Source of the DNA: Candidatus Micrarchaeota archaeon
GTDB taxonomy: Archaea; Micrarchaeota; Micrarchaeia; Burarchaeales; JAKAKT01
Direction of reading: 5' to 3'
NCBI GenBank assembly: GCA_043814255.1
Contig: JBDRKD010000103.1
Span: 6,499 to 38,498 of the forward strand
DNA length: 32,000 nt
Position 1 is the stretch's first letter; each line of letters begins with the position of its first letter. Under the pieces are notes generated by a model. That model was given only the letters and a program-made list of their open reading frames with translations. It was not told the DNA's origin and ran no database searches. Both the position numbers and the translations under genes were made by a program. Positions 1 to 24,178 of this stretch are shown piece after piece.

Positions 1-3000
1 CCGAGTCAGTGAAGTTGCAGGCATCCCCACCTGAAGAATATATACTATAATTCGCCCAGTCGGATGTTATGTTGTAGAACCTATTATTGCTTGCGCCACT
101 AGCAGTATAAACTCCATAAACCGTGTCATTCATTGTTATATTCTTAAACAGGTTTCCTGTTCCCGATGGACTAACAAAGATTCCGCGCGTCACATTCATT
201 ATTCTCCCATTCTCGTAGGTGCCATTCGAATCCAGAAACAATGCATACGAGCAATCCGCACCACTACAAGTTATGTTAAAGTTGGTGAGGTTAACATCGA
301 CCGAATCTATGGATGTCGCATAATCACTTGCATTATCAACCGAAAGGCCCGTGACATTCGCAGGACATTCGAAGTATGTGCCCCCATACCCATTCTGCAC
401 AATAACATTCTCGAACGAAACATTGGATTTGCAGCTACTTGATGTAACCCTAATCGCATACCCGCTGCCGGACATATTCGTAATGTTCAGGTCGACACCT
501 GAGAAATTTGAGACACCCGATAGCTGTATACCATAAGACCGATAAAGCATGCTTCTTCCACTATCCGACTCGCCTGAGTGGTTCTCTCCTGTGTAATTTC
601 TTACAATCAAATGGTCTCCCCAGTTTACAGAGACCCCATACCCAAATCCCCCATTGGGAGTTGCTCCGGCTCCCTCAGCTGAGAGGTTCCAGTCAGTATG
701 GTTCGTGACATTCGTGTAGTTGGAATTCAGTACGTATACACCCACGGAATGGTCGCTGTACCCATCCGCATAGAGATAGCTGTCATAAACAGTATTGTTG
801 TATATGTCCACACCAAGAGACACATTCACCATTATGCTCGTGGAGAAGTTGTTAATCCGGCAGTTCCTGATGAGTATGTTCTGCCTCCCCTGAGTATCAA
901 TCGCATACGCATACCGCGTGTTGTTGCCGGTAATTGTATGTCCACCACAGTCAAGCATGATGTCATCTGCTCCGATTGTGATGCACGTCGAACCGTATGA
1001 TTGTAAGTCACTAACGAGTGTCGTGTCCTGTGTTATGGTTCCACACGTTGGGTCGTACAGTGTAAGGTTTACGACAGTGTTTGTGGTTATGTTGACGCTG
1101 GTCGTATTGGATGCAGTGGCATTGGAAGCTATCACGGTGTGGTTATTCCAGCTGTAATTTGTCTGGCCCCCTCCGGTATTCTCAACATTCACGTCTCCTG
1201 CGGCAACAACACTTGAAAGCCCTCCAGCCCCAATTGTCTCAGACAGGATGCTGTTGCTGTATATATCCGTGACATTCACATCAGCGCTTATCCCGTCCCC
1301 ACTGATATTCGTTACATTCACCCGAAGGTACCACTTTATCGTAAAGTTCTCCGTTGAAGTCCCGTCCCAGTCAATGCTCGCCCAGTCAATCGAGCAGTTC
1401 AGGAACGTGCTGTTCTGCCCGTCATTTGGATACAGGTCATAGTCATTGACATTGCTGACTGTCGTGTTTGTGAAGTTATGCGCCCCACCAGAGAACTCTA
1501 TTCCATATGCGTCTCCCATAGCGCCTGCTGGGAAGCAAAGAACCTGGGACCCAACATCAACCACGTCTATTGTGACATTACCAAATACATTGTTTGAAGC
1601 ACCCGTCAGGTATATCCCATGGGAATCCCCAGCACACCCGTTAAATCCCATCACATCCCCAGAACCGCCTGCGCCATCGTCTCCGCTTGCGGCATATGAC
1701 AGGTAATCACTATCAACATCATTTGTACCACCAACCACATAGAGCAGGTATACATCTCCACTATCCCCACCTACTCCTCCTAGATCCACTGCGTCTCCCC
1801 CGTTCCCACCATCACCCGAAGTAACGTTTGTCACATTATTATTCCAACCCGTGTTGCTCCCATCTCCAAGGTATACTCCATAAGCTGTTCCACCGTCCCC
1901 TCCATTGCCCCCCGAGCTCAATGCTCCTGCCCCATTTCCCCCGTCTCCCCCGTTTCCGCTTGCAATCCGGCTTACATTATTGTAATTGTAATAGCTGCTC
2001 CCACCCGCCAAGTAGATTCCGTAGGCATCCCCACCATTAACTCCTGAAGGCCCGTTGCCACTTGTGTCATCCCCTGCATTCCCCGCATCCCCGCCACCCA
2101 CTATGCTCACGTTGTTTTCAATGAGCCAGTTTGTTGCAGAATTGATGTACATCCCATAAGCCACCCCACCTATGCCTCCTGCTGTTGCCGTTGCCCCGGT
2201 TGTTCCAGCCCCACCATTTCCGCCAACTATATTCGTTATGTTGTTCTTCTTTATCGTGTTATTTCCGATTGAATATATCGCATAAACATCTGCTCCTGCA
2301 TTCGTGCCCCCAGCAGCTCCACTCCCGCTGGTTATGTTCACAATCACATTGTACTCCAGAGTGTTGTTATTGGAACTGCTGTTCATGTAGGTCCCATAAG
2401 CAGTCCCAGCAGTATCTGTTGCCCTGACTGAAGTTATATTGTGGATTATGTTGCTCGTGATGTTGTGTCCAGTATATCCATCAACATACAATCCAGACCT
2501 GTTGTAGGTTCCAGTGCCCCCTGCGTCATACGTCAACGTATTGTTATCCACAGTAACATTGTAGCTCTGGTTGATGTATACATCATGCTGGAAATCAGCA
2601 ACAATACAGTTCCTTATGAAAACTCCATCAGTATCGTTGGTATCCACTCCGATGTCCCCCTCACCACCATCCCCGCGTATCGTGTACCCCATACAGTTCA
2701 AGGTGATGTCATCCGCGCCAAACACAATACAATCTCCGGTTGTCGTAAGGTCAGCACCGAGCGTAGTGTCCTGCGTTATGACTCCGCAATCGATTGCATA
2801 CAATGTCAGATTTATCGTCTGGCTCGCATTAGTCATCTTGAACGACGTGGAGTTTGCAATATAGCCCCCCAGGCTCGCGTTTATCGTGTGATTGTTGAAC
2901 GAGGTATTCCCAGCACTGGTGTAATTCGTATCATTCACAACGATGTAATTTGTCAACCCATCCGAATCAGTCAGGTTGTCCTGCATCCCAAAATTCCCAT

Positions 3001-5881
3001 TGATGTCAGTTATGTCCACTACGACATTCTCAATCCCCGTTCCCCCAGAATCAGTCACATTCACCCTTGCATACCACTGCACGAGGAAGTCACTCGTGGC
3101 TATAAAAGTTACGTTAGAATAATTGCCAGTTGTATTCAGGAATATGTTATCATTGGTTCCACTACCAACATATAACATAGCTGTTGTCACCGAGGAAGTA
3201 TAGAAAATACAATCTGTGAAATTGTTTTCATCATTACCTGATTGGAAATTGACTCCATATTGGGACCAGTCAAATGTTACGTTGTAGAACTTATTCTCAC
3301 TCGCACCACCACCAAAATCAAGTCCACGGGTTGTGTCATTGATTGTTATGTTCTTAAACAGCCCCTGAACCCCAGATGAACTGAACTTAATTCCGTATGT
3401 GAAGTTCTCTATTCTTCCGTTCTCCAGGGTAATGTTATCTTCATTTACACCCACCCCAGACTGTATACAAGTGCTCTCAGCACATGTTACATTGAAGTTA
3501 GTTACATTGATGTGGGGCCTGCCTGCGGTAATACCTCCAGAGCTCGCGTTATCCACCAAGATGCCATCGGCATTCGCAGAACAAAGTAAATACAAGCCAG
3601 TACCGGTTTTATTTGCTATGAGATTCTGCACAGATATGTTCATATAAATGGCAGGGTCTGCCAATATGCCAATACCATACCCTCCTGTCATGCTTGTGAC
3701 ATTCACGGTATCTATCGAGGCATTGGATAAAGATAATGAGTCTATTCCGTGTCCAATACTGCTAATGCTTCTCCCGCTGTCGGACTCTCCTGTGTGGTTC
3801 TCCCCAGTGTAATTAGTTATTATAAGATGATCTACAGCGTTCATGTATATTCCCCGAGCTTTTCCTCCAGAAGGAGGGTTGATTGCAGTCATTGTGAAGT
3901 TCCAATCAGTATGGTTCGTGACATTTGTGTAATTTGAATCTAGAATGTACAATCCTATCACGTCGTAGGTCACACCATTTGCATAGAAATAGCTGTCATA
4001 AACAGTATTGTTGTACACATTTACTCCTTGTGATTCATTCACAACAATGCTCTGACTGAAATTATTTATCCTGCAGTTCCTGATTATTACGTTCTGCCTC
4101 CCCTGTGCTTCTATTGCATAAGCGTAGATTGTGTTGTTCCCGGTAATAGTATGCCCGCTGCAGTCAAGCATGATGTCGTCTGCACCTATTGTAATACAAG
4201 TAGTGCCATAAGAATAGATATCGTTTATCAATGTCGCGTCCTCCGTTATTGTCCCACACTCGCTTTCTGCTGCTGCGTACAAAGTGACATTCACAACAGT
4301 GTTCGTCGTTATGTTTACCGTGCTCTCATTCGTGGAAGTCCCATTGGTCACGTTCACAGTATGGACGTTGTAGGAGTAGTTGTTGTATGAGCCGGTCACC
4401 TGCGTCACATCCTTCTCATTCACTATTGCGATGCTTGAAAGCCCCCCAGCATCGACAGTCTCAGATAACCTGCGCACACTGAAGTTGTCGGTAACCTCCA
4501 CATCAGCGCTTATCCCGTCCCCGCTTATGTTGGTCACATTCACCTGCAGGTACCACTTTATCGTGAAGTTCTCAGTCGTGGTGGTATCCCAATCAATGCT
4601 GTTGTAATCAATCGAGCAGTTCAGGAACGTGCTGTTCTGCCCTCCGTTTGGATATATGTCGTAGTCCTCTACATGATCAACAGTGGAATTGGTGAAGTTG
4701 TGGCCGCCCCCCACAAAACCTATCCCATAAGCGTAATCTAGGTTTGCTATAGCACAAGCCCCAGACCCCAACTGGGTTATGTAATCTACAGTTACATTAT
4801 CATATGCATCATAAGTCCCGCTCTCGATGTAGATTCCATACGCGCCTCCATAACATCCTGCAAGCCCCCCGAGATCTCCTACACCACCCAATCCCCTGTC
4901 TCCACCTATCGCCTCTTTTAGGTAATCGCTCTCTATACTGTTGCTCCCATCAAGCGCATACAGGAGATACCCCTCCCCTCCGTTCCCCCCAACTCCTCCA
5001 AAACAGAACAGGTCACTGCAATCTCCACCATCACTGCCATCCCCTCCAGTAGCATTAGTTACGTTATTCTCAAGATTGTAGTTGCCTCCCCCCTTGAGGT
5101 AGATTCCATACGCATTTCCCCCATCATTTCCGGTCAGCCCACCGCCATCAGTATGCGAACCAGGTTTTCCACCAGCCCCTGCAGTTATTGTGCTCACATT
5201 GTTCCGAACAATCCAATTCGCCGGATATATTGCGTTAAGCTGTATGCCATAGGCGTCACCTCCCACGCCTCCCTGGTCTGGTGAAGCGCCACCAAGCCCA
5301 ATCCCCCCATTCCCAGCTACTAAGTTAGTTACTACATTCTCCTTTATTGTGTTGTTCGCAGTGGAATAGATACCAGTAACATCTGCTCCGGCGTAATCTC
5401 CGCCGACGTTACCATCCCCTCCACTTAGATTCGCAATTATGTTGTACTGGATTGTGTTGTTACCCGCACCTGTGGATAGAATTATCCCATATACTCCACC
5501 AGCAGTAGTTGTTGATGCAACAGAAGTAAGGTTGTGGATAACGTTATTCGTGATGTTGTTCCCGCTGTACCCAAGCACCCACAGGCCATATCTTCCGTAG
5601 GTTCCTGTGCCCCCTGCATCATACGTCAACGTATTGTTATTTATCGTTGTGTTGTAGCTGTACCTAACATATATCGGAACCTGGAAATCAGCAACAATAC
5701 AGTTCCTTATCGTGGTCCTGTTGTGATAGTCGGTGTCTATCCCATAATCCCCAGTGCCCCCATCCCCCCGTATCGTGTAACCATTACAATCCAGGTAAAT
5801 GTCATCCGCGTCAAATACAATGCAATCTCCGGTTGTCGTAAGGTTCTGGGCCAAAGTGCTGTTCTCGGTTATGGTGCCGCA
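1..5881 (-). repeat. Tandem coding super-repeat inside the giant gene. The unit is A-type helix, spacer, B-type helix, spacer. The period is about 3093 nt measured A2 to A3 and about 3213 nt measured B1 to B2. The second copy is cut by the window edge.
   Basis: Module start motifs recur at 5881 and 2788, and at 4258 and 1045. Nucleotide blocks are identical or near-identical: ggaaatcagcaacaatacagttccttat occurs near 2590 and near 5683, and cacatcagcgcttatcccgtcccc occurs at 1277 and 4499. Antisense track ORFs are mirrored: 1248..1442 resembles 4380..4607, and 2441..3175 resembles 5534..6112. Confidence 0.8.
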
Positions 5882-8800
5882 GTCGACCAAATCAACAGTC
5901 ACACTTCTGTTCTCCGTTATGTTGAGGTTTCCACCGGCATCCATCGCATAGGCAAAATAATCATACGTCCCCTCGCCCAACGAGGTGAATTCATTCTGCA
6001 ACCTATTGGCAGAATTATTATATGCTGCCAGCACCTCTTCGGCAGAAAGGGCGCGGCTGAATATGGCAATCTCATCAAGGCTCCCGTTCAACCAAGTCCT
6101 ATCACTCCCTAGGTTGTAATCCTTTCCCAACAGCGATTCAGAACCGCCTATTGAATCCGGAGCGCCCCCCTGCGTTCCAGTGGCCTCAAGGCTCCCGTTG
6201 ACATAGAGAGATAATCCAGTGCCGTTGAACACAGCAGCAAAATGCGTCCACTCGTTCACAGGAGCACTATAATCCGAGGAATAAATATTCACACTTGAAT
6301 TTACAGAGTTCCACGTGGTAAAGCGAATAGCTTCTGGATGAGCAATCCCATCAACGAAATCCGCCTCAGTCCATTCAACAAATGTCTGGTACTGCCCCCT
6401 CAAATCAACAAGTAGCTGCTCATCCGCAGCCGACACTTCAACATCATTCTCTCCAAGCGGGTAAACCCAGCCGATAATGCTGAACTCATTCGCATCCGGC
6501 AGGATATCATTCGGAATATCAACATAATCATTACTATACCCTCCATCAAAATATAGTGCGTTCCCCCTAACACCACTCACTATATCATCTGTATCCAATC
6601 CTCCCTCAAAGGTTCCGAAATTACTATTAGTCGAATTATCATAGATGCCCGAGGCACTATAGAAATCCATGGGCCAGTAGGCAAGCAGGCTGTAGTTCCA
6701 ATCAAAGAACGCAGATGTCTCGCTGTCATCGGTTATTGTTGTATTAAGGTACACAGTAGGAACCTGCACTGTGGAGCCGTTATCAGGAGTTGGGTATTCC
6801 CACACTATCGAGGGTTCGGTCAAGTCCACATCAAGGGTTATATTTATTGTGTAGCATGCATCTGAAACGTTGAACGAGGTGGTGCTGCTCGTTCCACTGT
6901 AGCTCACGTTTATCGTATGGTTGTTGAATGGAATTTCAGTACCGGGACCCAGATCACTCTCAGCACTCTCCACATAACCCGTAAGCCCATCCGCATCGGT
7001 GGTGTTCATGCTCATCTCGACCCTGTCTGTCGAGTCGCTGATATTGCATTCTGCGCCGTTTACTGGAATCCCGCCAATAGCTGTGACATTGAGCCTCACA
7101 TACCACTTTATGCTTGCGTTCGCCCCAGCTGAAAAGGCCACGTCAGTGCTCGCATTAAGGAGTATGTGGTTTATCGAGCTGGCCGTGAACCAGAATTCAT
7201 AGTCCTCAGCATTTGTCACGCTTCCATTCGAGACATTCCAATAGTCATAGCCGCCTGTGTAAAATCCAGACGCCAGTGCACTTCCTCCACTTGTCACATT
7301 ATCTATTGTGAAGTTTTCTATGATTGCATAATGCCCTGCTTGCCACCCCCAAGCATCACCATCAGAGCCGTCCGCTCCGGCAGGGGTCCCGGTCCCCCCA
7401 CTCCCGCCAGTGCCTCCCATCACATCCCTCACGCTGGTGTTCTTGAAATCGAGGTTGCTCGCAGTTGAATAAATCCCATGGGCTCTCCTCCCGTCGCCCC
7501 CATCCCCACCAGCTCCTATACTACTTCCCCCATCCCCACCAGCTCCCCCAACTACGTCCCTGACACTGACGTTCTTGTAATCAGTACCGCTTCCATACAA
7601 TCCATATGCATACCCTCCATTATTCCCAACCCCTGTTCCTGATCCAGTTCCCCCATCCCCACCATAAACTCCATCAACGTTTATGTTATACAGTTCAGTG
7701 AAACCAGTAGTGTATATATACGCATGATCCCCCAAGCCCCCATTAGTACCGCCTAGCAAAGCCGCACCGCCATTTCCTCCGCTCCCCGCGGTTATGTTTG
7801 ACAACGAGACATTGTGCAGCGTGTTGCTGCTGGAACTGCTTGTATAGATGCCATATACTATCTCTCCGTTCCCTCCATTATATGCCACACCTCTGTCACT
7901 GCCCCCTATCCCTCCATCCCCGCCGCTTATGTTCGCTATTGTTATGTTCGTGAAATTCGAGTATCGAGCATAGATTAAGTCCATGCCCCATCCATCCCCA
8001 CCCAATCCACCAGTTGTGGTCGTTCCCCCGCTCGCCCCATCCCCACCATGTATCTCGTTGATGGTTATGTTCTCGAACAGGTTATAATCAGAATACTGGG
8101 TGTTTATGTAAATCCCATACGCATCATATCCAGTTGCTCCAGCAGCACCTGAATTTCCCATAGTTGAATTCATTATTGTTACATTGTACACAAAGCTGTT
8201 GTCCGCATTCGACCAATATATCCCTGCTTGGAACCCACTTATGACGCAGTTCTTTATTGTTATGCTATCTCTTGTACTCGGAACAATTATCCCGTAATCC
8301 CCGTTGCCCGCATCCCCAAAAATGGTGTATCCCTGACAGTCCAGCGTGATGCCATTCGCCCCTATTGTGAAACAATCCCCCGTAGTCACCAAATCACTCT
8401 GCAGGGTTGTGTCACCAGTTATGGTCCCGCACCCTGGGCCGGTGTAGGTGACGTTCATGTACGGGCGCTGCGATTGTGTGGAGTAATCACACTCCCGCCA
8501 TCCAATGTAGTTAGAAGGAGCAAGCATGTCCCCAATATACAGGGGTGATGAAGTGCGGCCATCCCCACCCAGGAACGGATAGTCGGGGTCCTCTATGCGT
8601 ATAGAGAGATTCGCATTCCCTGCGTTGAAATCAGTCAGGAACGGCTGCGTTACGTTGATGCACCACCAGTCATCGGTTTCATTGGTGCTGAATACCTGGC
8701 TCGTGTTCTCATCAGTAAGGGGCATGTCCTCGAATTCCTCGGCAACAGTTGATTCAGTCCATGTCTGATTGGCAACACGCGAGAAATTGGCATCGTCATC

Positions 8801-10402
8801 TACTGTTTCAGCGGTCATGAAATTCCAGAAACAAAGCTGCACATCACTTATTGTTGAGCCCCACAGGTTTATTGCGCTCATGTCCCACTTGATTTGCGTT
8901 GCAACCTTCCAGTCCGTGCTATTCTGAATGTAGTTATCCTCAAGGCAGTATCCACTACTGCCATTGAAATGCGCTGTCGGGTCTATCACAATTGGGTAAA
9001 CAGACCTCTCTAACCAGTAAAGCGGCACGGAAACGGCGTAGTACCCCTTCCCAGCCCTCTCTGTCAGCTCAGCATCAAGCTCAATAACATCCGGATACCC
9101 AACTTCCTCTCCATCAACCAGTGCCTTTGCCGAATCCCTTGCATCAGCAGGGGCGAAAGAATATGCAACGCTTCCATCCCCACTAACGAAATCAATCCAC
9201 TCCTTGCTCTTCTCACCCACCCCCACGCTAGGCTCCAACCCCCTGTAATCAATCTGGGAGACAAAGTATATCTCAGCATCTTCATTAAGTGCAAGGCCTG
9301 AAACAAGCGTCTTGAACTCCTCCTTCAGCATCAACTTCTCCTTCAGCAGGCCCTCCTGGTAATAGTACTCAACATCAACGCCGGTGAACACATCCCCGTA
9401 CACAACCGAATTCCTGTTCGGTATCCCAACCGAATCAGATGCGACCTGTATGTACCTGTACTGCTCCCCATCGTGATACGCGATTCCGAACGGCCTCATC
9501 TTCAGCTCGTTCCCACCAGCCACAGCAAGCACAGGCCAATCGTCATTCACCTCGCTCTTGAAATAGGTGTTGTAATCCCCCTCCCCAACTAACCTATAAT
9601 CATCAGCATACATACCCTCCGTTCTCCCAATACTAATCAGGGTCTTGTCTATCGGAACGTATTCCTCCCCGTTCCACCAGTTCACCGGAGTTGCGTAGAT
9701 TATCCTGCTTGTGCTCCCGTCAGGGTTCAGTACATCGTCCCAGCTCTCCCCCCTCCCCAACGCATCCTCCACTTTCGTCAGCTTCTCCGCAGCACAGACG
9801 CTTGCGTACCTCCCCCCAAGAATAAGCGACCCATATGGGGAATAGACAGTCATGTTCCACGTCCCATTTGAACAGGGGGTGACATTGTACCTCAGCATGA
9901 ATGACCTGTTCGTCCTCTCCCTGAACGAGAAGTGACCGGGATCAACAGGAATCCATCTATAAACATTTTGCTGCCTCCTCACAATTTTCCCATCCTCCTC
10001 CACAACAGAGACTAGGGAGTTCGAGAAATAGGATTGCCAGAGCGTGATGCCCCGGGCATCCCCGCTGAATTGATGGTGGAATTCAACTTCGAAATCATGT
10101 ATCTGCCCGGCCTCATTCTTGATGAGTATCTGCGTTTCACATACGCCCACACTTGAGCAGGCGGTCCCTTTCTCGTATGATGCAGTGAACCCGGACTGCT
10201 TGTCAAGGAATTTTGCAGATGATTCCAGTTTCACGTTGTCAACAGCCTCATCAACAGGGTACTCAACATACTCATCTATATTGAATTTGAACATCGTTGT
10301 TTGTGTTGGGAAGGCGATATTGCATAGAAGGAGCACCACCAGCACAGACTTAACAGTAACCGCGCAGCTAGGACTGGACCACATTATCACAGTTCTTTTC
10401 AT
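1..10402 (-). CDS. Giant secreted surface protein. N-terminus is complete and the C-terminus runs off the left window edge (at least 3467 codons). Order: signal peptide, YPxxIDPT/DNRLRE-like beta-sandwich region, parallel beta-helix module A1, Ig-like spacer, LamG lectin domain, then beta-helix modules A2, B1, A3, B2 separated by spacers.
   Basis: The ATG at 10402 is directly preceded by an in-frame TGA (10403..10405, the stop that ends track ORF 10403..10708). The N-terminus reads MKRTVIMWSSPSCAVTVKSVLVVLLLCNIAFP. I checked the frame by hand at 10400, 10013, 8456, 5879, 4256, 2786, 1043 and 2; the lowest codon coordinate is always 2 mod 3. The track lists no minus ORF in this frame, which fits an ORF with no stop inside the window. 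Each beta-helix module opens with a CG(T/V)IT..(T/S)TL...L...G.C motif (starts near 8431, 5881, 4258, 2788, 1045). The A modules have repeated GG.G.AYGIY...N..(V/I)(T/S) coils. Confidence 0.85.
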   Translation of the reverse strand, partial: MKRTVIMWSSPSCAVTVKSVLVVLLLCNIAFPTQTTMFKFNIDEYVEYPVDEAVDNVKLESSAKFLDKQSGFTASYEKGTACSSVGVCETQILIKNEAGQIHDFEVEFHHQFSGDARGITLWQSYFSNSLVSVVEEDGKIVRRQQNVYRWIPVDPGHFSFRERTNRSFMLRYNVTPCSNGTWNMTVYSPYGSLILGGRYASVCAAEKLTKVEDALGRGESWDDVLNPDGSTSRIIYATPVNWWNGEEYVPIDKTLISIGRTEGMYADDYRLVGEGDYNTYFKSEVNDDWPVLAVAGGNELKMRPFGIAYHDGEQYRYIQVASDSVGIPNRNSVVYGDVFTGVDVEYYYQEGLLKEKLMLKEEFKTLVSGLALNEDAEIYFVSQIDYRGLEPSVGVGEKSKEWIDFVSGDGSVAYSFAPADARDSAKALVDGEEVGYPDVIELDAELTERAGKGYYAVSVPLYWLERSVYPIVIDPTAHFNGSSGYCLEDNYIQNSTDWKVATQIKWDMSAINLWGSTISDVQLCFWNFMTAETVDDDANFSRVANQTWTESTVAEEFEDMPLTDENTSQVFSTNETDDWWCINVTQPFLTDFNAGNANLSIRIEDPDYPFLGGDGRTSSPLYIGDMLAPSNYIGWRECDYSTQSQRPYMNVTYTGPGCGTITGDTTLQSDLVTTGDCFTIGANGITLDCQGYTIFGDAGNGDYGIIVPSTRDSITIKNCVISGFQAGIYWSNADNSFVYNVTIMNSTMGNSGAAGATGYDAYGIYINTQYSDYNLFENITINEIHGGDGASGGTTTTGGLGGDGWGMDLIYARYSNFTNITIANISGGDGGIGGSDRGVAYNGGNGEIVYGIYTSSSSSNTLHNVSLSNITAGSGGNGGAALLGGTNGGLGDHAYIYTTGFTELYNINVDGVYGGDGGTGSGTGVGNNGGYAYGLYGSGTDYKNVSVRDVVGGAGGDGGSSIGAGGDGGDGRRAHGIYSTASNLDFKNTSVRDVMGGTGGSGGTGTPAGADGSDGDAWGWQAGHYAIIENFTIDNVTSGGSALASGFYTGGYDYWNVSNGSVTNAEDYEFWFTASSINHILLNASTDVAFSAGANASIKWYVRLNVTAIGGIPVNGAECNISDSTDRVEMSMNTTDADGLTGYVESAESDLGPGTEIPFNNHTINVSYSGTSSTTSFNVSDACYTINITLDVDLTEPSIVWEYPTPDNGSTVQVPTVYLNTTITDDSETSAFFDWNYSLLAYWPMDFYSASGIYDNSTNSNFGTFEGGLDTDDIVSGVRGNALYFDGGYSNDYVDIPNDILPDANEFSIIGWVYPLGENDVEVSAADEQLLVDLRGQYQTFVEWTEADFVDGIAHPEAIRFTTWNSVNSSVNIYSSDYSAPVNEWTHFAAVFNGTGLSLYVNGSLEATGTQGGAPDSIGGSESLLGKDYNLGSDRTWLNGSLDEIAIFSRALSAEEVLAAYNNSANRLQNEFTSLGEGTYDYFAYAMDAGGNLNITENRSVTVDLVDCGTITENSTLAQNLTTTGDCIVFDADDIYLDCNGYTIRGDGGTGDYGIDTDYHNRTTIRNCIVADFQVPIYVRYSYNTTINNNTLTYDAGGTGTYGRYGLWVLGYSGNNITNNVIHNLTSVASTTTAGGVYGIILSTGAGNNTIQYNIIANLSGGDGNVGGDYAGADVTGIYSTANNTIKENVVTNLVAGNGGIGLGGASPDQGGVGGDAYGIQLNAIYPANWIVRNNVSTITAGAGGKPGSHTDGGGLTGNDGGNAYGIYLKGGGNYNLENNVTNATGGDGSDGGDCSDLFCFGGVGGNGGEGYLLYALDGSNSIESDYLKEAIGGDRGLGGVGDLGGLAGCYGGAYGIYIESGTYDAYDNVTVDYITQLGSGACAIANLDYAYGIGFVGGGHNFTNSTVDHVEDYDIYPNGGQNSTFLNCSIDYNSIDWDTTTTENFTIKWYLQVNVTNISGDGISADVEVTDNFSVRRLSETVDAGGLSSIAIVNEKDVTQVTGSYNNYSYNVHTVNVTNGTSTNESTVNITTNTVVNVTLYAAAESECGTITEDATLINDIYSYGTTCITIGADDIMLDCSGHTITGNNTIYAYAIEAQGRQNVIIRNCRINNFSQSIVVNESQGVNVYNNTVYDSYFYANGVTYDVIGLYILDSNYTNVTNHTDWNFTMTAINPPSGGKARGIYMNAVDHLIITNYTGENHTGESDSGRSISSIGHGIDSLSLSNASIDTVNVTSMTGGYGIGILADPAIYMNISVQNLIANKTGTGLYLLCSANADGILVDNASSGGITAGRPHINVTNFNVTCAESTCIQSGVGVNEDNITLENGRIENFTYGIKFSSSGVQGLFKNITINDTTRGLDFGGGASENKFYNVTFDWSQYGVNFQSGNDENNFTDCIFYTSSVTTAMLYVGSGTNDNIFLNTTGNYSNVTFIATSDFLVQWYARVNVTDSGGTGIENVVVDITDINGNFGMQDNLTDSDGLTNYIVVNDTNYTSAGNTSFNNHTINASLGGYIANSTSFKMTNASQTINLTLYAIDCGVITQDTTLGADLTTTGDCIVFGADDITLNCMGYTIRGDGGEGDIGVDTNDTDGVFIRNCIVADFQHDVYINQSYNVTVDNNTLTYDAGGTGTYNRSGLYVDGYTGHNITSNIIHNITSVRATDTAGTAYGTYMNSSSNNNTLEYNVIVNITSGSGAAGGTNAGADVYAIYSIGNNTIKKNNITNIVGGNGGAGTTGATATAGGIGGVAYGMYINSATNWLIENNVSIVGGGDAGNAGDDTSGNGPSGVNGGDAYGIYLAGGSSYYNYNNVSRIASGNGGDGGNGAGALSSGGNGGDGGTAYGVYLGDGSNTGWNNNVTNVTSGDGGNGGDAVDLGGVGGDSGDVYLLYVVGGTNDVDSDYLSYAASGDDGAGGSGDVMGFNGCAGDSHGIYLTGASNNVFGNVTIDVVDVGSQVLCFPAGAMGDAYGIEFSGGAHNFTNTTVSNVNDYDLYPNDGQNSTFLNCSIDWASIDWDGTSTENFTIKWYLRVNVTNISGDGISADVNVTDIYSNSILSETIGAGGLSSVVAAGDVNVENTGGGQTNYSWNNHTVIASNATASNTTSVNITTNTVVNLTLYDPTCGTITQDTTLVSDLQSYGSTCITIGADDIMLDCGGHTITGNNTRYAYAIDTQGRQNILIRNCRINNFSTSIMVNVSLGVDIYNNTVYDSYLYADGYSDHSVGVYVLNSNYTNVTNHTDWNLSAEGAGATPNGGFGYGVSVNWGDHLIVRNYTGENHSGESDSGRSMLYRSYGIQLSGVSNFSGVDLNITNMSGSGYAIRVTSSSCKSNVSFENVIVQNGYGGTYFECPANVTGLSVDNASDYATSIDSVDVNLTNFNITCSGADCSYALFLDSNGTYENGRIMNVTRGIFVSPSGTGNLFKNITMNDTVYGVYTASGASNNRFYNITSDWANYSIYSSGGDACNFTDS
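6010..6710 (-). other. LamG / concanavalin-A-like lectin domain (Laminin_G_3 type) within the giant protein
   Basis: Hand translation gives LLAYWPMDF...GNALYFDGGYSNDYVDIP...EFSIIGWVYP...WTHFAAVFNGTGLSLYVNGSL...WLNGSLDEIAIFSRALSAEEVLAAY. This is the canonical LamG_3 strand pattern, ending in the DE(I/V).I..RALS..E(I/V) motif. Confidence 0.75.
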
Positions 10403-10427
10403 TCAGGTCGCACTACGAATCAGCCGT

Positions 10428-10443
10428 CTATAATATAAATACA
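10428..10443. promoter_or_regulatory. Shared AT-rich TATA block for the divergent giant gene (ATG 10402) and nnr gene (ATG 10462)
   Basis: The block ctataatataaataca sits in a 59-nt intergenic gap. Read on plus, atataaat is centred about 26 nt before 10462. Read on minus, tttatatt is centred about 33 nt before 10402. Both spacings imply leaderless or very short-leader mRNAs. Confidence 0.45.
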
Positions 10444-10461
10444 TTTTGGTATATCCGTTCC

Positions 10462-11304
10462 ATGGAAAACGAGATAAAAGCAAGGGGAATAATAAAGCGC
10501 AGGCACCCCCGCTCAAGAAAAGGGGAGAACGGGAGGCTCGTTGTGATTGGCGGAAGCACCCGCTATTACGGCGCACCGGCACTCGTCTCCCTTGCCGCAA
10601 TGAGGGTTGGGGCAGATCTTGTGTATACGCTTGTTCCTGAAAGAATCGCCCCAACAGTCGCATCCTACTCTCCAGACCTGATAGTCTGGGGCTATTCTGG
10701 CGATTCACTCAACCCGTCAATCTACCCATTCGTGAAGGAGTTATCCCTGAAGGCAGATTCACTGGTCATAGGCAACGGCCTCACGCGCGAGCACGATGTC
10801 AAGAAAACAGCACAGCGAGTCGTCAACTCCTGGGAGAAGCCCATTGTATTGGATGCAGACGCCATAGGAGCGCTGGAGACACCCGAAGGAAGAACAGTGT
10901 ACACGCCACATGACAATGAGTTCCTCAGGCTTACAGGAAAATGCCCGCCTGACTCAATTATAGAGAGAACAAGCATAGTGAAGCACGAAGCCAGAAAGAT
11001 AGGGGCAACAATACTGCTCAAGGGGGCAATCGACGTCATTTCTGATGGGGAGAGGACGCACACAAACAGAACTGGGAACGCAGCCATGACATGCGGCGGG
11101 ACAGGAGATGTGCTCGCAGGCATAGTGGGCGCATTCCTCTCACAAGGTTATTCGCCATTCGATGCAGCCCGTATAGGTGCGTATGTCAATGGCCTTGCAG
11201 GTGACATCGCGTATGACAGGTTTGGGTACTCGATGCGGGCAACAGACGTGCTTGATACAATGCCATCCGCAATACAGAGGATACATGGCAGAAGCCAGAA
11301 ATGA
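10462..11304 (+). CDS. nnrD: ADP-dependent NAD(P)H-hydrate dehydratase (YjeF C-terminal / carbohydrate kinase family)
   Basis: 280-aa ORF. It has KGENGRLVVIGGSTRYYGAPALVSLAAMRVGADLV near the N-terminus and a GGTGDVLAG motif near the C-terminus. Both are typical of this family. Confidence 0.85.
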   Translation: MENEIKARGIIKRRHPRSRKGENGRLVVIGGSTRYYGAPALVSLAAMRVGADLVYTLVPERIAPTVASYSPDLIVWGYSGDSLNPSIYPFVKELSLKADSLVIGNGLTREHDVKKTAQRVVNSWEKPIVLDADAIGALETPEGRTVYTPHDNEFLRLTGKCPPDSIIERTSIVKHEARKIGATILLKGAIDVISDGERTHTNRTGNAAMTCGGTGDVLAGIVGAFLSQGYSPFDAARIGAYVNGLAGDIAYDRFGYSMRATDVLDTMPSAIQRIHGRSQK

Positions 11305-11348: not shown

Positions 11349-12290
11349 ATGAGGGTAACCCTGTTCGCGTTTGTTTTGCTTTCTGCGCACATCATAACTG
11401 CCTACGAGATAGGCGATATCAGGGAATTTGATTCAAGCGGGTTCTCAGAATATCCTGAAATAGAAGGGATCAGGCAAGACCTCCTGCTCTCGTTCTATTC
11501 TGTTGGCAGGGACAACCTGCCCCCAGGTTTCCCGGAATTTGCTGGCGCATCAGTTATCTTCATGACGCAGTTTGGGAAGGCCTATGACCTATCCTCCTCC
11601 GGAGAACAAACAGACCTCCTGCGCCTTCCGGAAACCCTAACGGATTTATCCTCATCTCTCCAGCGGATGGAAGGCCTTTCAAGGGACGAGATACTGCTCT
11701 CAAAACACAGCGCGTATCTGGCCAGGTCGTTGTTCGATAGGTATGTCCATGACGAAGCCCGGAAACTTAGGGGACTTGCGGAATCAGAGGCGCGTACGGC
11801 GCGGAAACTAGAATATTACCTAGCGGCCTCAGAACTCTTCGAGCGTTCTGGGGACAAGGTCAGCTCATCCGAGATGAGGGCGACATATGACAGCATAAAG
11901 GCAGCCTATGATGCAGACCTCGAGTCAGCGGATGCTATGTTTACTCAGGGGAAAACAACATGCAATGATGCAATTGAGGACATGGGGGCATGGTTCGGCC
12001 TTCCGGCGTATGCCCGTCTCAGGGAATGCACAGCAACCCTTTTCTCTGCCAGGGGAACATATGTTTCCCATCTGGAATACGAACGTATTGAGCAGTTGGA
12101 TTCGCATATGCTGGCAGCCACCGACACAATGGAAAAGCTCTCAGGCAGCGTGATGGTCCTTTTCGTTTTCGGTTCCATCCTGTTCATATCAATCAACGTC
12201 TTTCTCATATCCAGATTCAGAAGATGGCATGAGGACATCTATGATACATCACTAGGTACAGAGGTGCTCAGTTGGAAAGGAAACTCCTGA
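11349..12290 (+). CDS. Secreted, C-terminally membrane-anchored helical protein of unknown function
   Basis: 313 aa. Signal-like N-terminus MRVTLFAFVLLSAHIITA. The body is rich in Ala, Glu and Arg and looks helical. C-terminal TM VMVLFVFGSILFISINVFLI is followed by RFRRW. A TATA-like acatataata lies about 30 nt upstream of the ATG. Confidence 0.7.
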   Translation: MRVTLFAFVLLSAHIITAYEIGDIREFDSSGFSEYPEIEGIRQDLLLSFYSVGRDNLPPGFPEFAGASVIFMTQFGKAYDLSSSGEQTDLLRLPETLTDLSSSLQRMEGLSRDEILLSKHSAYLARSLFDRYVHDEARKLRGLAESEARTARKLEYYLAASELFERSGDKVSSSEMRATYDSIKAAYDADLESADAMFTQGKTTCNDAIEDMGAWFGLPAYARLRECTATLFSARGTYVSHLEYERIEQLDSHMLAATDTMEKLSGSVMVLFVFGSILFISINVFLISRFRRWHEDIYDTSLGTEVLSWKGNS

Positions 12291-14563
12291 TATTATCCAT
12301 AATCATTATGGCATCTTGCATTTCCCATGGCCAGATTGTGGTTGGAGAGGTACTGACCTATCCCGCCCTAGTAGTCGAATCAACCGAGAATGTTACTCTC
12401 TCATGGGGGACAAACGACCTTGCGCTCAGTTCAATCAACTGCACAGGCCCGGGAGTGGAGACATACCACGTTCAAGTCGAGACCGAGCCAACAGCGAACC
12501 ACGCATTCTTCCTGGAGACCAATTTCACAGGTGAAGGAATACTGGCATGCACAATCGTCACGTTCCCAATCAATGGGACATCAGTCACAAGGGACTACGA
12601 AATCCCCATCCATTGCGAAGGCGTCAGGCTGGAGCTTCTGAATCCATCAGTACGGGTAGCAGCTTATTTCACAAGGCCAAAAGGGACAGGGCATTATATG
12701 CTGAATACAACGATAAAAGTCAGGAACGCATGTGTTGGTCTGGCGATAGTTTCTGTATCATCGACCCCGCCAGGCGGGATGCAGATGGCCGTGAAGGCAG
12801 ACGACATCTACGGCCTCAATGTTAAGGACATGCCAGTGACGATAACAGTACCTGATTCAATGGATGAGGGAGTTTACCAGGGAACAGTGCGCTTTAGTGC
12901 AAACGGCAGTACCACTACATCGCTGGTAAACATTTCAGTCCATTGGCCAGGTCCAACAATCAGGGCGAAAATCGGCAAGGGTCCATCTGACATCAACCCA
13001 CTTGGGAACGTCAGGTCCGGAACGGATGTGGTGGAATACGTGGAGATTGAGGAAACAATGGGGTATAATGCCGCGAAGGATGTGGTATGTTCTGTGAAGT
13101 TCCAGGATAGGAACCAGGAACAGCAGGCAATAAGCATCGGTACAGTTAATCCATTTGGGAATGGGCGATGCTCATTTACAATGAACTTCCCAGACAGGAA
13201 TGTCCGCATAGGGAACTATTCCGTGTGGATAGCAATAACATCCAACAATTCAGGTGACCTCAACCTGGTGACAAATTACACAATACCTGTACCATACATC
13301 CTGTTTGCACCAACAACAATAGACCTTGGGAAGCTCACGTTCGATTCGGGAAAGGATTCGTCGAATTCAATCCTGACAATCATAGAGAACGGCGGGTTCA
13401 CCCCTATAGAGAACTTGAAATTCGAGCTTCTTGGCGGGAGTGAAGGATGGATATCCCTTCCATCATGCTACTATGTCCCACCAGGCGGAAGAATTAACTG
13501 CACGTTCAAGATATCGCTCAGCGATAATGCGAGCATAGGGCCGAAGGAATGGGTGATAGGCATAAGTTCAGAGTATATTCAGCCTGTTGAGCTTACAGCA
13601 AAGGTCGAAGTCTACTTCATAGGTGTCGAGGATGCTATCGCAACATTGGAGGCAATGTCTGTTTATTCCATAATGGACCAATTCATACAAGCGGAGACGG
13701 TGAAAACAAACACTGTAATGATGCTCGAGGGAATAAAAGAGAGTGATATCTCAATGGAGGACACTGCAATCATACTCTCAATGTATGGGGGCGTCGAGTC
13801 TCTGCTTGCCCAGACCGAAAGGGCCCGTGGAAATTTCTCATCAGGAGACCACCTTGGTGCTGGAAGGAACCTTCTTGTTTCCAGTATGGCACTCGAGAAG
13901 ATATCCTCCACTTACCGCTCCACAAAAGGGAACAGAACAGGTGCGTTACGTGATTTGGGAGAGGTCTACACCGCGAGCGCCTCCCTGTGGTCCGCCTCAT
14001 CCGAAGATGTTCTCAAGGTGCTTGAAGCCGAGGCAGTAGCAAGCGAGAAGGTCAGTTACAGGAGGGCAGCAGAGTATTACTCCCTGCTTGCAGACATATA
14101 CTGGCAGAGCAATGAAGACAAGTCCAAGGCGTTCTCACATAAGGCAGATACCCTGGGGAGTTTCTATTCAGACTCTGTCATAAGGGCTGGTGAAATCAAG
14201 CGCAATGCAGACAGGCTGTTCTCAATGGCACGCGAAGGGACAATCGAAGCCAGCGGGATGCACATAGTAATCAACCCATTCTCATATGACCGAACAATTG
14301 AAAACTACAGATTCGCATTGGCGGATTACGAGGCAGCATCCAAGCTTTACAAAAGCGCCGGACAGCAGAACGAGTTGAACATAATCCTCTCAACCCTTAG
14401 TGCAGCTGAGCAGGAATACGAATTCGTGGACAGGATGTTCATCCTTGGAGGGGTGGTCCTTTCGCTATTCCTCGTTCTTGTGATACTGCGCGTGACCGTC
14501 GGGATGCAGCGTTATAGGGAAGATGAGGAGGACATGGAGATAGGGAATGTGATGCTACATTAA
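12272..14563 (+). CDS. Large surface protein with an N-terminal beta-sandwich (CARDB/NEW3-like) region, a helical stalk and a C-terminal TM anchor
   Basis: 763 aa. A TTG start is inferred because it gives the signal-like ERKLLILSIIIMASCISHG; it overlaps the upstream gene by 19 nt. It has strand patterns such as VTITVPDSMDEGVYQGTVRFSANG and many sequons. The C-terminal roughly 250 aa look helical and resemble the 313-aa neighbour (ARKLEYYLAASELFERSG versus SYRRAAEYYSLLADIY). The anchor is MFILGGVVLSLFLVLVILRV followed by an acidic tail. Confidence 0.75.
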   Translation: MERKLLILSIIIMASCISHGQIVVGEVLTYPALVVESTENVTLSWGTNDLALSSINCTGPGVETYHVQVETEPTANHAFFLETNFTGEGILACTIVTFPINGTSVTRDYEIPIHCEGVRLELLNPSVRVAAYFTRPKGTGHYMLNTTIKVRNACVGLAIVSVSSTPPGGMQMAVKADDIYGLNVKDMPVTITVPDSMDEGVYQGTVRFSANGSTTTSLVNISVHWPGPTIRAKIGKGPSDINPLGNVRSGTDVVEYVEIEETMGYNAAKDVVCSVKFQDRNQEQQAISIGTVNPFGNGRCSFTMNFPDRNVRIGNYSVWIAITSNNSGDLNLVTNYTIPVPYILFAPTTIDLGKLTFDSGKDSSNSILTIIENGGFTPIENLKFELLGGSEGWISLPSCYYVPPGGRINCTFKISLSDNASIGPKEWVIGISSEYIQPVELTAKVEVYFIGVEDAIATLEAMSVYSIMDQFIQAETVKTNTVMMLEGIKESDISMEDTAIILSMYGGVESLLAQTERARGNFSSGDHLGAGRNLLVSSMALEKISSTYRSTKGNRTGALRDLGEVYTASASLWSASSEDVLKVLEAEAVASEKVSYRRAAEYYSLLADIYWQSNEDKSKAFSHKADTLGSFYSDSVIRAGEIKRNADRLFSMAREGTIEASGMHIVINPFSYDRTIENYRFALADYEAASKLYKSAGQQNELNIILSTLSAAEQEYEFVDRMFILGGVVLSLFLVLVILRVTVGMQRYREDEEDMEIGNVMLH

Positions 14564-16464: not shown

Positions 16465-17196
16465 TCAGCCATACATCGGTCCGAGTCCCTGTACTTTCTT
16501 GTAGTGTTCATGGGCCGTCTTTGCGTTTTTCATAATATCCTTTATCTTCCCCTCTATTGTTCTGGATTCGTTTATAAGCTCCTTGGTGTCGACATCTATC
16601 TTGATGATGTCCTTCAGTTTTTCTATTACTATCGCAGAGGCAAGCGGATCCATGAAATCAGGTTTCGCCTCTGCTAGCAGCGATGCTGCCGGGAAGCCTC
16701 TGGAAGCGCATTCTGCCAGAAGCACCCCACTCACACCAGTAGTGGCGCCTTCCTTTATCATCTTTATGCCATTCCTCTCCAATCGTTTTCTCAATTCAGG
16801 AGTACTTGCAATCCCGAAGACGTCGTTCCTGTTCCCATCTATGGATATCCCCCCAAGGGAGAATATCTCGCGGACCTTGTGGTCCACCGCCCAATCAACA
16901 ATCTCTGATGCAAGGTGATGTATGGTTCCCATGGGCATCGTGAATTCACTGAAGAGCACAATGAGATTGTATTTCTTTGATTTGTATATTCTGGCTGGAT
17001 GGAGCGGGGCGTAATTATGAACAGCAGCAAGGGGCGGAAATTTCTCAGAGGTGATATAGCCAAGCTCATCCATCTTAAGTTTCTCAACAAGATAGCTAGC
17101 AGATATCGTTCCGACCAACCCAACGCCCGGGAACCCTTCTATGAGGGTAGGATTCTTCAAATCAAACTTCCCAACTTCCCTTATTCTCACAGCCAT
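16465..17196 (-). CDS. PAC2-family proteasome assembly chaperone (archaeal PbaA/PbaB-like)
   Basis: 243 aa. The N-terminal LIEGFPGVGLVGTISASYLVEKL motif and the overall length are typical of the PAC2 family. A TATA tttatata is centred about 33 nt upstream of the ATG. Confidence 0.8.
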   Translation of the reverse strand: MAVRIREVGKFDLKNPTLIEGFPGVGLVGTISASYLVEKLKMDELGYITSEKFPPLAAVHNYAPLHPARIYKSKKYNLIVLFSEFTMPMGTIHHLASEIVDWAVDHKVREIFSLGGISIDGNRNDVFGIASTPELRKRLERNGIKMIKEGATTGVSGVLLAECASRGFPAASLLAEAKPDFMDPLASAIVIEKLKDIIKIDVDTKELINESRTIEGKIKDIMKNAKTAHEHYKKVQGLGPMYG

Positions 17197-17493: not shown

Positions 17494-17805
17494 GTGGTTA
17501 ATCTAAACGCAGTCGTGTATGCGGTATGTTTCGTGCTGTTCCTGGTAGGGATAGCGTTCATCTATTACCTCTCAAAAATCACACAGTACAATGAGGCATC
17601 AGAGAACAGAACAAGGCGGAGGATAGAGGATGTGGCATACTACCTCTCAAAGCTTGAGGAACACATCGAGGATGTGGAGGCACAGATTCATAAGAAAATA
17701 GACTCAAGTGAACTGGAGACAAGAATCAAGCTTACCACTTACGACCAAATAATCACGCGGGTTTCAAAACACACCAAGAAAAGCCGGAAGGCGGTGGCAC
17801 AATGA
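17494..17805 (+). CDS. Bitopic membrane protein: N-terminal TM plus coiled coil. It is a paralog of the N-terminal leader module of the next gene.
   Basis: 103 aa. GTG start with GGAGG 6 nt upstream. The TM is AVVYAVCFVLFLVGIAFIYYL. The coiled coil is RRIEDVAYYLSKLEEHIEDVEAQIHKKIDSSELETRIK. It ends in SRKAVAQ and has an ATGA overlap with the next gene. Confidence 0.65.
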   Translation: MVNLNAVVYAVCFVLFLVGIAFIYYLSKITQYNEASENRTRRRIEDVAYYLSKLEEHIEDVEAQIHKKIDSSELETRIKLTTYDQIITRVSKHTKKSRKAVAQ

Positions 17806-18524
17806 TTGAAGAACTTGAGATAGCACCACAATCACTCATACTTCTTGTAGTAACGGGACTGTTCCTATTCTGGCTCGTTCGCTATGCCGGGGGCCTGAGG
17901 AGGGAAGCGGAGTCTAAGAGGCTTGTGGTCGAGGAAGACATGGCTGACCTGGAGGATGTCTCAAGGAAGCTGGAGGAGAACATAGACGACCTGTACAAGC
18001 GTTTGGACAGCAAGGTTGATCAGGTGCACCTAGAATTAAAGCTCGAGGAGCTGGAGCGAAAGCGGGCAGAGCTCATTCGCAGTGCAATAGAGGCGAGGAA
18101 GAAAGCACAGGCATCCATCGAGCTGATGGCAATATTCACGCTGTTGCTCGTACCGATAGCTATCGGTTTCATGTATTCGTACACTGCAATCTCTGATTCA
18201 ATGAATTACAAGGCCGCTGTAGTTCTTGATCGCATCGGAGCAGTCGCGGAGAAGCTTTATGTCGAGGGTCCAGGGGCAAGTGCCCTGGTTTATGTGGACG
18301 TGCCTAGTGGAGTTGACCATGCCTCCTCATATATAGGGACCCCATCATCCGGAGAGGGAAGGTATCTTTCCATCAATCAATCAGGCTCCGAGTCTTTTCG
18401 CATATTGGATGCAACAGTAAGCGGGGAATGGCCAAACACCACGGGGGGAAAAGTTCGGCCAGGTTTCAGTGTATTTAATCTGACTGTCAATTCCTCTGGC
18501 ACTGTCAGGATTCAGTTAAGGTGA
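17802..18524 (+). CDS. Pilin-like protein with an internal class III signal motif preceded by a 102-aa TM plus coiled-coil leader
   Basis: 240 aa. The TM is SLILLVVTGLFLFWLV and the coiled coil is EEDMADLEDVSRKLEENIDDLYKRLDSKVDQVHLELKLEELERKRAEL. Then comes ARKKA|QASIELMAIFTLLLVPIAIGF (Q103 at 18108), which matches the DUF361-type QxSxExxxL prepilin motif. A roughly 115-aa beta-rich domain follows. Confidence 0.65.
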   Translation: MIEELEIAPQSLILLVVTGLFLFWLVRYAGGLRREAESKRLVVEEDMADLEDVSRKLEENIDDLYKRLDSKVDQVHLELKLEELERKRAELIRSAIEARKKAQASIELMAIFTLLLVPIAIGFMYSYTAISDSMNYKAAVVLDRIGAVAEKLYVEGPGASALVYVDVPSGVDHASSYIGTPSSGEGRYLSINQSGSESFRILDATVSGEWPNTTGGKVRPGFSVFNLTVNSSGTVRIQLR

Positions 18525-18907
18525 GGTTGTTGAGGGCCCAAATAGCACTTGAGTACATATTTGCGTTTCTTATGTGGATTATCATATGCACAATAACGGT
18601 ATTCATGATTAACCCATACGTCTCTGCCCTGTCGTCTGGGTTCACGACAATGTCATACTCCGCGACAATCCAAAAGCTAAACGAGATAGCTGCTTCTGAC
18701 CTTGATGGCATGAAGCACACACAGGTATATCACAAGATAAATAACACGCTGTCTTTCAACAACACTATTGTTGCGATACATACTACGGATGGGGAGGTAA
18801 TCATTGGGTCCCAACTTACCTATACATATGCGGACAATTTCAACCAGGGGGACAGGATGCTCATAAAGAATAACGGGGACGATATACTGGTCATACGGGT
18901 GGAATGA
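18521..18907 (+). CDS. Class III signal peptide (type IV pilin-like) protein
   Basis: 128 aa. GTG start overlapping the upstream stop (GTGA). The N-terminus MRLLRA|QIALEYIFAFLMWIIICTITVF fits the (K/R)(G/A)|Q..(S/A).E...hydrophobic prepilin pattern. Confidence 0.7.
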   Translation: MRLLRAQIALEYIFAFLMWIIICTITVFMINPYVSALSSGFTTMSYSATIQKLNEIAASDLDGMKHTQVYHKINNTLSFNNTIVAIHTTDGEVIIGSQLTYTYADNFNQGDRMLIKNNGDDILVIRVE

Positions 18908-19862: not shown

Positions 19863-19868
19863 TCACAC

Positions 19869-20858: not shown

Positions 20859-20918
20859 TGCTAATCACAGGTATGATGTCTTCCCTCCTTAAATCATTTT
20901 CGGAGGAGTGCAGGGCAG

Positions 20919-23377: not shown

Positions 23378-23385
23378 GTGTACCA

Positions 23386-24177: not shown

Positions 24178-24178
24178 C

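Follow-up and report, generated by a model that had tools for sequence, protein, structure and literature searches.

The 32,000-nt stretch of Candidatus Micrarchaeota DNA analyzed here (contig JBDRKD010000103.1; hereafter the window) carries on its minus strand a single intact and real gene for a very large protein, which takes up about one third of the window. Judging from its modules, we consider this giant protein, with a probability of roughly 60%, to be a glycan-directed attachment or host-contact fiber acting on a partner cell or matrix. It would be exported through a Sec-type signal sequence and would project from the cell as a rigid fiber, whose CBM96-like and LamG modules, and possibly helix grooves, could bind glycans on the partner cell or in a biofilm matrix. 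Such an adhesin or host-contact role, which we infer, agrees with what has been proposed in the literature for LamG-rich surface proteins of Micrarchaeota (PMC5498576).

The Gene and Its Reading Frame

Translation of the minus-strand frame at 2-10402 gave 3467 codons with zero stops, as an earlier reading of the letters (the original prediction) had claimed for the ATG at 10402 up to the window edge. An in-frame TGA was also found directly 5' of the start codon, where it had been reported. By our own arithmetic, the chance of 3467 open codons is (61/64)^3467, or about e^-166, and therefore the open frame is not due to chance. Its absence from the list of open reading frames (ORFs), which had been noticed as well, arises because that list omits ORFs running off the source.

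An exhaustive HMMER search with residues 36-640 as query recovered, at 100% identity, a 3752-aa protein (P0001) that is deposited in GenBank as MFH1448453.1, 'MAG: LamG domain-containing protein [Candidatus Micrarchaeota archaeon]' (MAG, metagenome-assembled genome), on a 38.5-kb contig and with the same start codon. Sequence comparison showed that P0001 begins with exactly the translation of the window, which makes up 92.4% of it. Therefore the gene, which had been described as still open at the window edge, continues for 285 codons plus a stop (~857 nt) past the left edge and totals ~11.3 kb. According to P0001, helix B2 is completed beyond the edge and is followed there by spacer 5 and a Cys-rich C-terminal domain of 152 aa. 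The GenBank record of P0001 names Candidatus Micrarchaeota as the source and the nearest GTDB relative is also a Micrarchaeota MAG, in line with the archaeal, small-genome origin originally supposed. This phylum now bears the name Microcaldota and is placed in the kingdom Nanobdellati (DPANN).

This is an internally repetitive MAG sequence, in which repeats might have been mis-joined into one long frame or a pseudogene might be decaying. The internal DNA repeats are limited to two copies of a ~3.1-3.2 kb duplication, and at 73-82% DNA identity these copies are too diverged for a collapsed-repeat assembly. Besides, zero stops occur in all 3752 codons, the domain boundaries are clean, the AlphaFold2 (AF2) models are confident, and collinear relatives cross the module junctions in independent assemblies (L001, P0003 and P0002, described under Relatives). 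We regard an artefact or a decaying gene as exceedingly improbable.

The giant gene and a plus-strand NAD(P)HX dehydratase gene (10462-11304; Carb_kinase, 177.9 bits) diverge from a 59-bp intergenic region (10403-10461), which contains a single AT-rich element, ATTTATATTATAG. Going by archaeal promoter geometry, we infer that this element is the putative promoter of the giant gene, which would then have a very short leader or a leaderless start, and apparently the dehydratase gene (plus strand) uses it as well as the giant gene (minus strand). The minus-strand ORF at 10403-10708, in the frame of the giant gene, is a shadow ORF, because it overlies the well-supported dehydratase gene.

Module Organization

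The module map was built from self-comparison, hidden Markov model (HMM) scans against Pfam and NCBIfam, and two AF2 models, one of the head and one of A3 with spacer 4. The basis of each entry is given in brackets.

10431-10439, minus strand: AT-rich TATA-like element, ~30 nt upstream of the ATG (sequence only)
10403-10405, minus strand: in-frame TGA directly 5' of the start codon (sequence)
10298-10402, minus strand: start codon and residues 1-35, Sec-type signal sequence with charged n-region and h-region SVLVVLLLCNIAF (Kyte-Doolittle)
9767-10297, minus strand: residues 36-212, lineage-specific beta-rich N-terminal domain (homologues in P0002 and P0004)
8933-9766, minus strand: residues 213-490, large all-beta 'X' domain (homology, AF2)
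8492-8932, minus strand: residues 491-637, CBM96/DNRLRE-like carbohydrate-binding beta-sandwich (sub-cut-off HMM, profile, Foldseek)
7169-8491, minus strand: residues 638-1078, beta-helix A1, Cys-rich N-cap CGTITGDTTL..DCxGYTI, then Gly-rich coils (homology to A2 and A3)
6809-7168, minus strand: residues 1079-1198, beta-sandwich spacer 1 (homologous to spacers 3-5)
5882-6808, minus strand: residues 1199-1507, LamG cassette of linker, Laminin_G_3 at 1290-1457 and short tail (PF13385)
4553-5881, minus strand: residues 1508-1950, beta-helix A2 (PF13229)
4259-4552, minus strand: residues 1951-2048, spacer 2 (62% identical to spacer 4)
3149-4258, minus strand: residues 2049-2418, beta-helix B1 with NHTDWN and NHxGxxD motifs (PF13229, motif conservation)
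2789-3148, minus strand: residues 2419-2538, spacer 3 (internal homology)
1382-2788, minus strand: residues 2539-3007, beta-helix A3 (AF2, Foldseek)
1046-1381, minus strand: residues 3008-3119, spacer 4 (AF2, seven-strand sandwich)
2-1045, minus strand: residues 3120 to about 3490, beta-helix B2, cut at residue 3467 by the window edge (PF13229)
outside the window, minus strand: residues about 3491-3600, spacer 5 (P0001)
outside the window, minus strand: residues 3601-3752, Cys-rich C-terminal domain, 152 aa (P0001)

The full-length protein has a mass of 397 kDa and an isoelectric point of 4.05. Its N-terminal segment (residues 9-38) is the sole one in the whole protein with a Kyte-Doolittle value above 1.6, which fits the signal peptide that had been predicted. 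Self-comparison revealed that the unit A2/spacer 2/B1/spacer 3 is duplicated as A3/spacer 4/B2/spacer 5, each copy being ~1050 aa long, with a protein identity of 46-65% over long segments and up to 83% in short ones. These sequences indicate that the rod, which follows the head (residues 36-637), grew by duplication of this A-helix/spacer/B-helix/spacer unit.

The Head

For residues 36-212, relatives are limited to P0002 and P0004, both Micrarchaeota MAG proteins, and the AF2 model has a predicted local distance difference test score (pLDDT) below 50. The head query as a whole (residues 36-640) was matched by 215 cluster representatives at E ≤ 1e-3, many of the matches starting at residue 20-60. 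Among the 150 top representatives, 85 have the X domain, often starting at residue 20-60 and often with CBM96 next. The domain includes the pattern VYGDVFTGVDVEYYY...LKEKLML...YPIVIDPT, which had been said to recur at the N-terminus of many large secreted proteins, as the 215 representatives bear out; the D-P of its terminal IDPT is invariant in the X-domain alignment. The AF2 model of the X domain is confident (pLDDT 80-97) and all-beta. No Pfam family matched it above threshold: DUF7948 reached 16.4 bits against a threshold of 27 (E = 0.0095, over a 37-residue stretch) and weakly matched 5 of 22 X-domain homologues (best E = 6.8e-4), which suggests at most a distant relationship. Foldseek gave weak PDB matches to beta-sandwich accessory domains of GH92, GH63, cellobiose phosphorylase and PL33.

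Residues 491-637 had been called a DNRLRE-like beta-sandwich. The copy lies below the cut-offs of both HMMs concerned (values under Surface Properties and Points Against), so the claim holds in part, backed by fold and profile homology and not by model scores. The region covers ~110-120 of the 164 positions of the CBM96/DNRLRE profiles, its family profile matches the solved CBM96 structure 8wab in PDB with an E-value of 1.2e-5, and its AF2 model matches 8wab with a Foldseek probability of 1.0 and a TM-score of 0.58 (probability 0.99 for the alginate-binding 7vbo). In addition, the homologue P0029 scores 83.5 bits with CBM96 in the region aligned to these residues. We accept residues 491-637 as a divergent module of the CBM96/DNRLRE superfamily and a putative sugar binder.

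The Rod

Five beta-helix modules had been predicted and all five were recovered. The Pfam Beta_helix cut-off (PF13229, 25.9 bits) was exceeded by A2 (38.2 bits), B1 (37.1 bits) and B2 (32.3 bits); A3 scored 18.9 bits, below that cut-off, and A1 had no PF13229 match, both being tied to A2 by clear internal homology. Helix A2 also matched NosD (22.9 bits) and helix A1 matched DUF4957 (22.7 bits, sub-threshold). The AF2 model of A3 with spacer 4 (pLDDT 83.3, predicted TM-score 0.83) consists, in its helix part, of repeating E-E-E three-strand coils. The top PDB matches of the A3 model in Foldseek are almost all right-handed beta-helices (E ~5e-4, TM-score 0.2-0.45), namely the epimerase A-modules of AlgE6 (probability 1.0) and AlgE4, the tailspikes of Sf6, 9NA, HK620 and CBA120, GH87, capsule depolymerases and PL6 lyases. 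Because the E-values are modest and the TM-scores low, these model-based matches would indicate the fold only.

The repeat of the A-type helices is made of one three-strand coil and a ~20-residue Gly/Asp/Asn-rich loop ending in (A/V)YG(I/V/M)Y. On successive coils that all carry the motif, the period is 42-47 residues. The original prediction had read the coil motif GG.(G/D)AYGIY as resembling the repeats of polymorphic membrane proteins (Pmp). The motif itself is real; the kinship did not survive, as GGA[ILVF] occurs 0 times in the 3752 aa (F..N occurs 7 times) and the Chlam_PMP/POMP (TIGR01376) models of Pfam and NCBIfam gave no match even at E ≤ 1. On these two grounds, a Pmp/POMP repeat protein was rejected.

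The B-type helices are without Gly-rich loops. In B1, B2 and the B modules of P0002 and L001, a nearly invariant NHTDWN is followed ~40 residues later by NHxGxxD, and the last B copy of P0002 is degenerate at both motifs (NFTTWN and NYSGDYH). We take this pair as a lead to a possible ligand, metal or active site, and nothing more. No solved sequence relative of helix B1 was found, and a scan of metagenome contigs with an alignment of the B modules found no relative.

These observations bear on another possible role, in which some or all of the beta-helices would be catalytic (depolymerase-, lyase- or epimerase-like) and would cleave or reshape polysaccharides of the host glycocalyx or of a biofilm, the CBM96-like and LamG modules serving for targeting. 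The best structural matches of A3 suit such a fiber, as AlgE6/AlgE4, the tailspike depolymerases, the GH87 glucanase and the PL6 lyases all act on polysaccharides. So do the CBM96 modules appended to a chondroitinase and an alginate lyase (8wab, 7vbo), the weak likeness of the X domain to accessory beta-sandwiches of GH92, GH63 and PL33 enzymes, and the near-invariant NHTDWN and NHxGxxD, which are degenerate in one paralogous copy as in active/inactive duplicates. However, the Pfam and NCBIfam scans gave no match to a catalytic family (pectate lyase, GH28, PL6, GH87 or AlgE), only to the generic Beta_helix and NosD; the Foldseek values (E 5e-4, TM-score 0.2-0.45) speak for the fold only, B1 is without a solved sequence relative, and catalytic residues are not assignable. 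We consider a glycan-processing fiber unlikely. Bolder, and with a slimmer chance of being right, is the idea that the beta-helices of the rod form a glycan-processing array, a cellular counterpart of the tailspike depolymerases of phages, with which a Micrarchaeon opens the glycocalyx or biofilm matrix of its host. NHTDWN/NHxGxxD of the B-type helices would then be an active or metal-binding site, and the head of X domain and CBM96 might be a targeting unit that secreted proteins of archaea use widely.

Between the helices, Ig-like spacers had been predicted. Spacer 4 is a seven-strand beta-sandwich in the AF2 model, so the label holds loosely; its best Foldseek matches are CueP, the Sulfolobus surface-layer (S-layer) stalk protein SlaB (8qox_B, probability 1.0) and CnaB2, not classical Ig domains. 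The predicted LamG lectin domain was found without ambiguity, with Laminin_G_3 (PF13385) scoring 92.7 bits against a cut-off of 27.6 over residues 1290-1457 (profile positions 3-150 of 151) and 85.8 bits on the whole-protein scan. It is inserted in the rod after helix A1, and its flanking segments co-occur with LamG in 4 other proteins. Its closest solved sequence is 4qvs_A (E = 4.4e-5), the LamG-like domain of an 'S-layer domain-containing protein'.

The matches to SlaB and 4qvs_A raise the question of a structural envelope component, that is, a part or decoration of an S-layer or sheath that gives protection or shape and has no partner-specific role. Beta-helices and beta-sandwiches are known among the domains of archaeal surface-layer proteins (Jing et al., 2002, as cited in PMC5498576), and the giant protein is acidic and sequon-rich like S-layer proteins. 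On the other hand, no S-layer family HMM of Pfam or NCBIfam matched it, for which reason an archaeal S-layer protein was rejected as a class assignment. Its 397 kDa also stand against 40-200 kDa for typical S-layer proteins and 101 kDa for the S-layer protein of a Micrarchaeon (bioRxiv 10.1101/2021.04.28.441871). Moreover, the full architecture occurs in a handful of MAG proteins, a better fit to a variable accessory than to a core lattice protein. A purely structural role is, in our opinion, quite improbable.

Surface Properties and Points Against

N-x-S/T sequons number 167 in the protein, whereas shuffled sequence yields 60 ± 6.7; few of the 167 fall within residues 1-490, and their density is highest in the spacers. 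Experimental N-glycosylation has been reported for the S-layer protein of a Micrarchaeon (bioRxiv 10.1101/2021.04.28.441871), and the giant protein is, on its sequon content, probably heavily N-glycosylated as well. A search by hydropathy for a C-terminal hydrophobic helix or membrane anchor found none in the full-length protein, whose C-terminus ends in ...GNETREMNHTSEQS, and the relative L001 is likewise without a C-terminal hydrophobic stretch. On this basis, a C-terminally anchored surface protein (PGF-CTERM/archaeosortase or transmembrane anchor) was rejected. The C-terminal 285 aa have zero Pfam matches, and for the C-terminal domain itself (residues 3601-3752) neither a Pfam match nor a solved relative was found. 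The protein might stay on the cell by an uncleaved signal anchor, or its head or C-terminal domain might bind there.

Several findings weigh against the proposed attachment or host-contact fiber. No means of holding the protein on the cell was identified. The structural N-[VI]-[TS] motif of the helix coils accounts for some of the surplus sequons, so the surplus is only suggestive of glycosylation and not clean evidence for it. The nearest structural neighbors of helix A3 are mostly polysaccharide-acting enzymes, not adhesins. Finally, the module that would bind sugar in the head falls short of the curated cut-offs, with 27.6 bits for NF033679 (DNRLRE; cut-off 34, E = 2.6e-6) and 23.1 bits for PF24517 (CBM96; cut-off 26, E = 7.5e-5).

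Relatives

The full architecture is rare, its relatives being P0002, P0003, P0004 and L001. P0002 (GenBank MFH1447545.1, at least 3228 aa, partial) has the same head, 44% identical, and a mixed helix/spacer rod. Its accession is ~900 away from that of P0001 in the same GenBank series, and therefore the two possibly come from the same MAG; P0002 is a probable paralogue of the giant protein. If both belong to one MAG, the pair takes >21 kb of a ~1-Mb genome. In independent assemblies, P0003 covers the X domain, CBM96, the A helix and the spacer, while P0002 covers head and rod. L001, from a GTDB Micrarchaeota MAG, is 46-53% identical and collinear over A-helix end, spacer, B-helix, spacer and C-terminal domain, and then stops. 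The genes downstream of it are not shared with the window, except for a generic MinD/ParA match at 26% identity. The same L001 sequence encodes, close to its giant gene at 7265-9712, an 815-aa protein with VIT, VWA and a C-terminal ArsR-type helix-turn-helix domain, an odd extracellular/DNA-binding fusion.

A shorter form of the plan was found in P0087 (512 aa, JGI/ENA), which combines a signal peptide, a small N domain and CBM96 with the Cys-rich C-terminal domain of the giant protein (E = 1e-16) and has neither helices nor spacers. That this rodless protein keeps CBM96 and the C-terminal domain suggests that head and tail are the working ends, and the rod may set the distance between them.

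Neighboring Genes

None of the other ORFs of the window shares any module with the giant protein, and the neighbors show no direct functional link to the gene. A target of a diversity-generating retroelement was rejected within the window, where no repeat links the gene to the rest and no reverse transcriptase domain occurs among the neighbors. The plus-strand ORFs at 11349-12290 and 12272-14563 overlap and encode 313 and 763 aa with no Pfam match; both products start with a signal sequence and end in a hydrophobic anchor, and both are probably envelope proteins. Further on, a PAC2 protein is encoded at 16465-17196. An identical PAC2 occurs on the 1.6-kb contig k141_80804 of an independent ENA assembly, ERZ27247117 (L002), and therefore this strain, or one very close to it, is also represented in a second data set.

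A cluster of small proteins with pilin-like N-termini lies at 17802-21665 and is pilin/archaellin-like, the product of 19404-19862 matching Arch_flagellin with 70.9 bits; a MinD/ParA-type ATPase (20919-21665) adjoins it. In Micrarchaeota Mia14, LamG genes have been linked to type IV pili loci (PMC5498576). At 22226-26209, a four-gene [NiFe]-hydrogenase-like set (Fer4_22, NAD/FAD-binding, Oxidored_q6 small and NiFeSe_Hases large subunits) hints at a possible hydrogen metabolism in this DPANN archaeon. The thymidylate synthase ThyX (28023-28727, 229.9 bits) and an Lrp-type regulator with two AsnC-type helix-turn-helix domains (30443-31465) were also annotated.

Comparison with Known Systems

The protein is already in GenBank under a generic name and giant LamG-bearing surface proteins of DPANN archaea are already described. 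Our findings overturn no current view and add a member, with its anatomy, to a known class. They contribute a full map of the modules, distinguish two helix types and describe the super-repeat, assign a divergent CBM96, set the boundaries of the X domain and reject the Pmp analogy. The X domain (residues 213-490), to which Pfam offers no family above threshold, occurs in at least 85 cluster representatives, often directly after the signal peptide and before CBM96. DPANN archaea, including Micrarchaeota, depend on host-cell contact, and the giant gene and P0002 are concrete candidates for contact molecules. The modules (CBM96-like, LamG, X, the two helix types and the C-terminal domain) each lend themselves to expression and to assays with glycans or host cells.

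Of the families considered, the chlamydial Pmp proteins with their GGA(I/L/V) and FxxN repeats are alike in their presumed nature as surface proteins with beta-helices and in having short coil motifs that contain Gly. The giant protein differs by its 0 GGA[ILVF], the missing HMM match, the lack of an autotransporter barrel and its archaeal host, and the resemblance is superficial. With right-handed beta-helix proteins (Beta_helix/NosD, AlgE A-modules, tailspikes) it shares the three-stranded coils, the Cys-rich N-cap and the N-[VI]-[TS] ladder; it differs in A-type coils of 42-47 residues with a ~20-residue loop (GGxGGxGG...AYGIY), in having five helices per chain split by sandwiches, and in carrying no catalytic signature. 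Compared with CBM96/DNRLRE (the chondroitin-sulfate-binding 8wab and the alginate-binding 7vbo), residues 491-637 match the greater part of both HMMs and share the fold in the AF2 model, and homologues of the region score well above threshold. The copy of the window, however, is below the curated cut-offs and sits on a non-enzymatic-looking giant rod instead of a lyase. Archaeal surface-layer proteins with beta-helix and PKD domains (Methanosarcina; Jing et al., 2002, as far as cited in PMC5498576) and SlaB are similar in combining beta-helix with beta-sandwich, and the spacer fold is that of the SlaB domains; the giant protein is without S-layer family domains and without a C-terminal anchor, and is ~4x larger.

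The closest parallels are the LamG-rich and giant proteins of DPANN archaea. In Micrarchaeota Mia14, LamG-like proteins are expanded, large surface proteins make up 2.5% of the genome and host contact has been proposed for them (PMC5498576), while giant LamG/Ig surface proteins are described in nanohaloarchaea (PMC10266531). A SPEARE-type protein was rejected, as no hydrophobic segment lies outside residues 9-38 and the last 285 aa, where a VirB4/TraG-like ATPase would be expected (PMC10266531), have no Pfam match. Like the proteins of Mia14 and the nanohaloarchaeal 'SPEARE' (PMC10266531, PMC6642349), the giant protein is very large, secreted, acidic and modular, combines LamG with beta-sandwiches, belongs to a reduced genome and has a proposed host-contact role. 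According to the descriptions of the nanohaloarchaeal giants, it differs from them in being without a C-terminal transmembrane or VirB4-like ATPase part, in having a rod of beta-helices in place of Ig/WD40 arrays, and in bearing a head composed of the X domain and the CBM96-like module.

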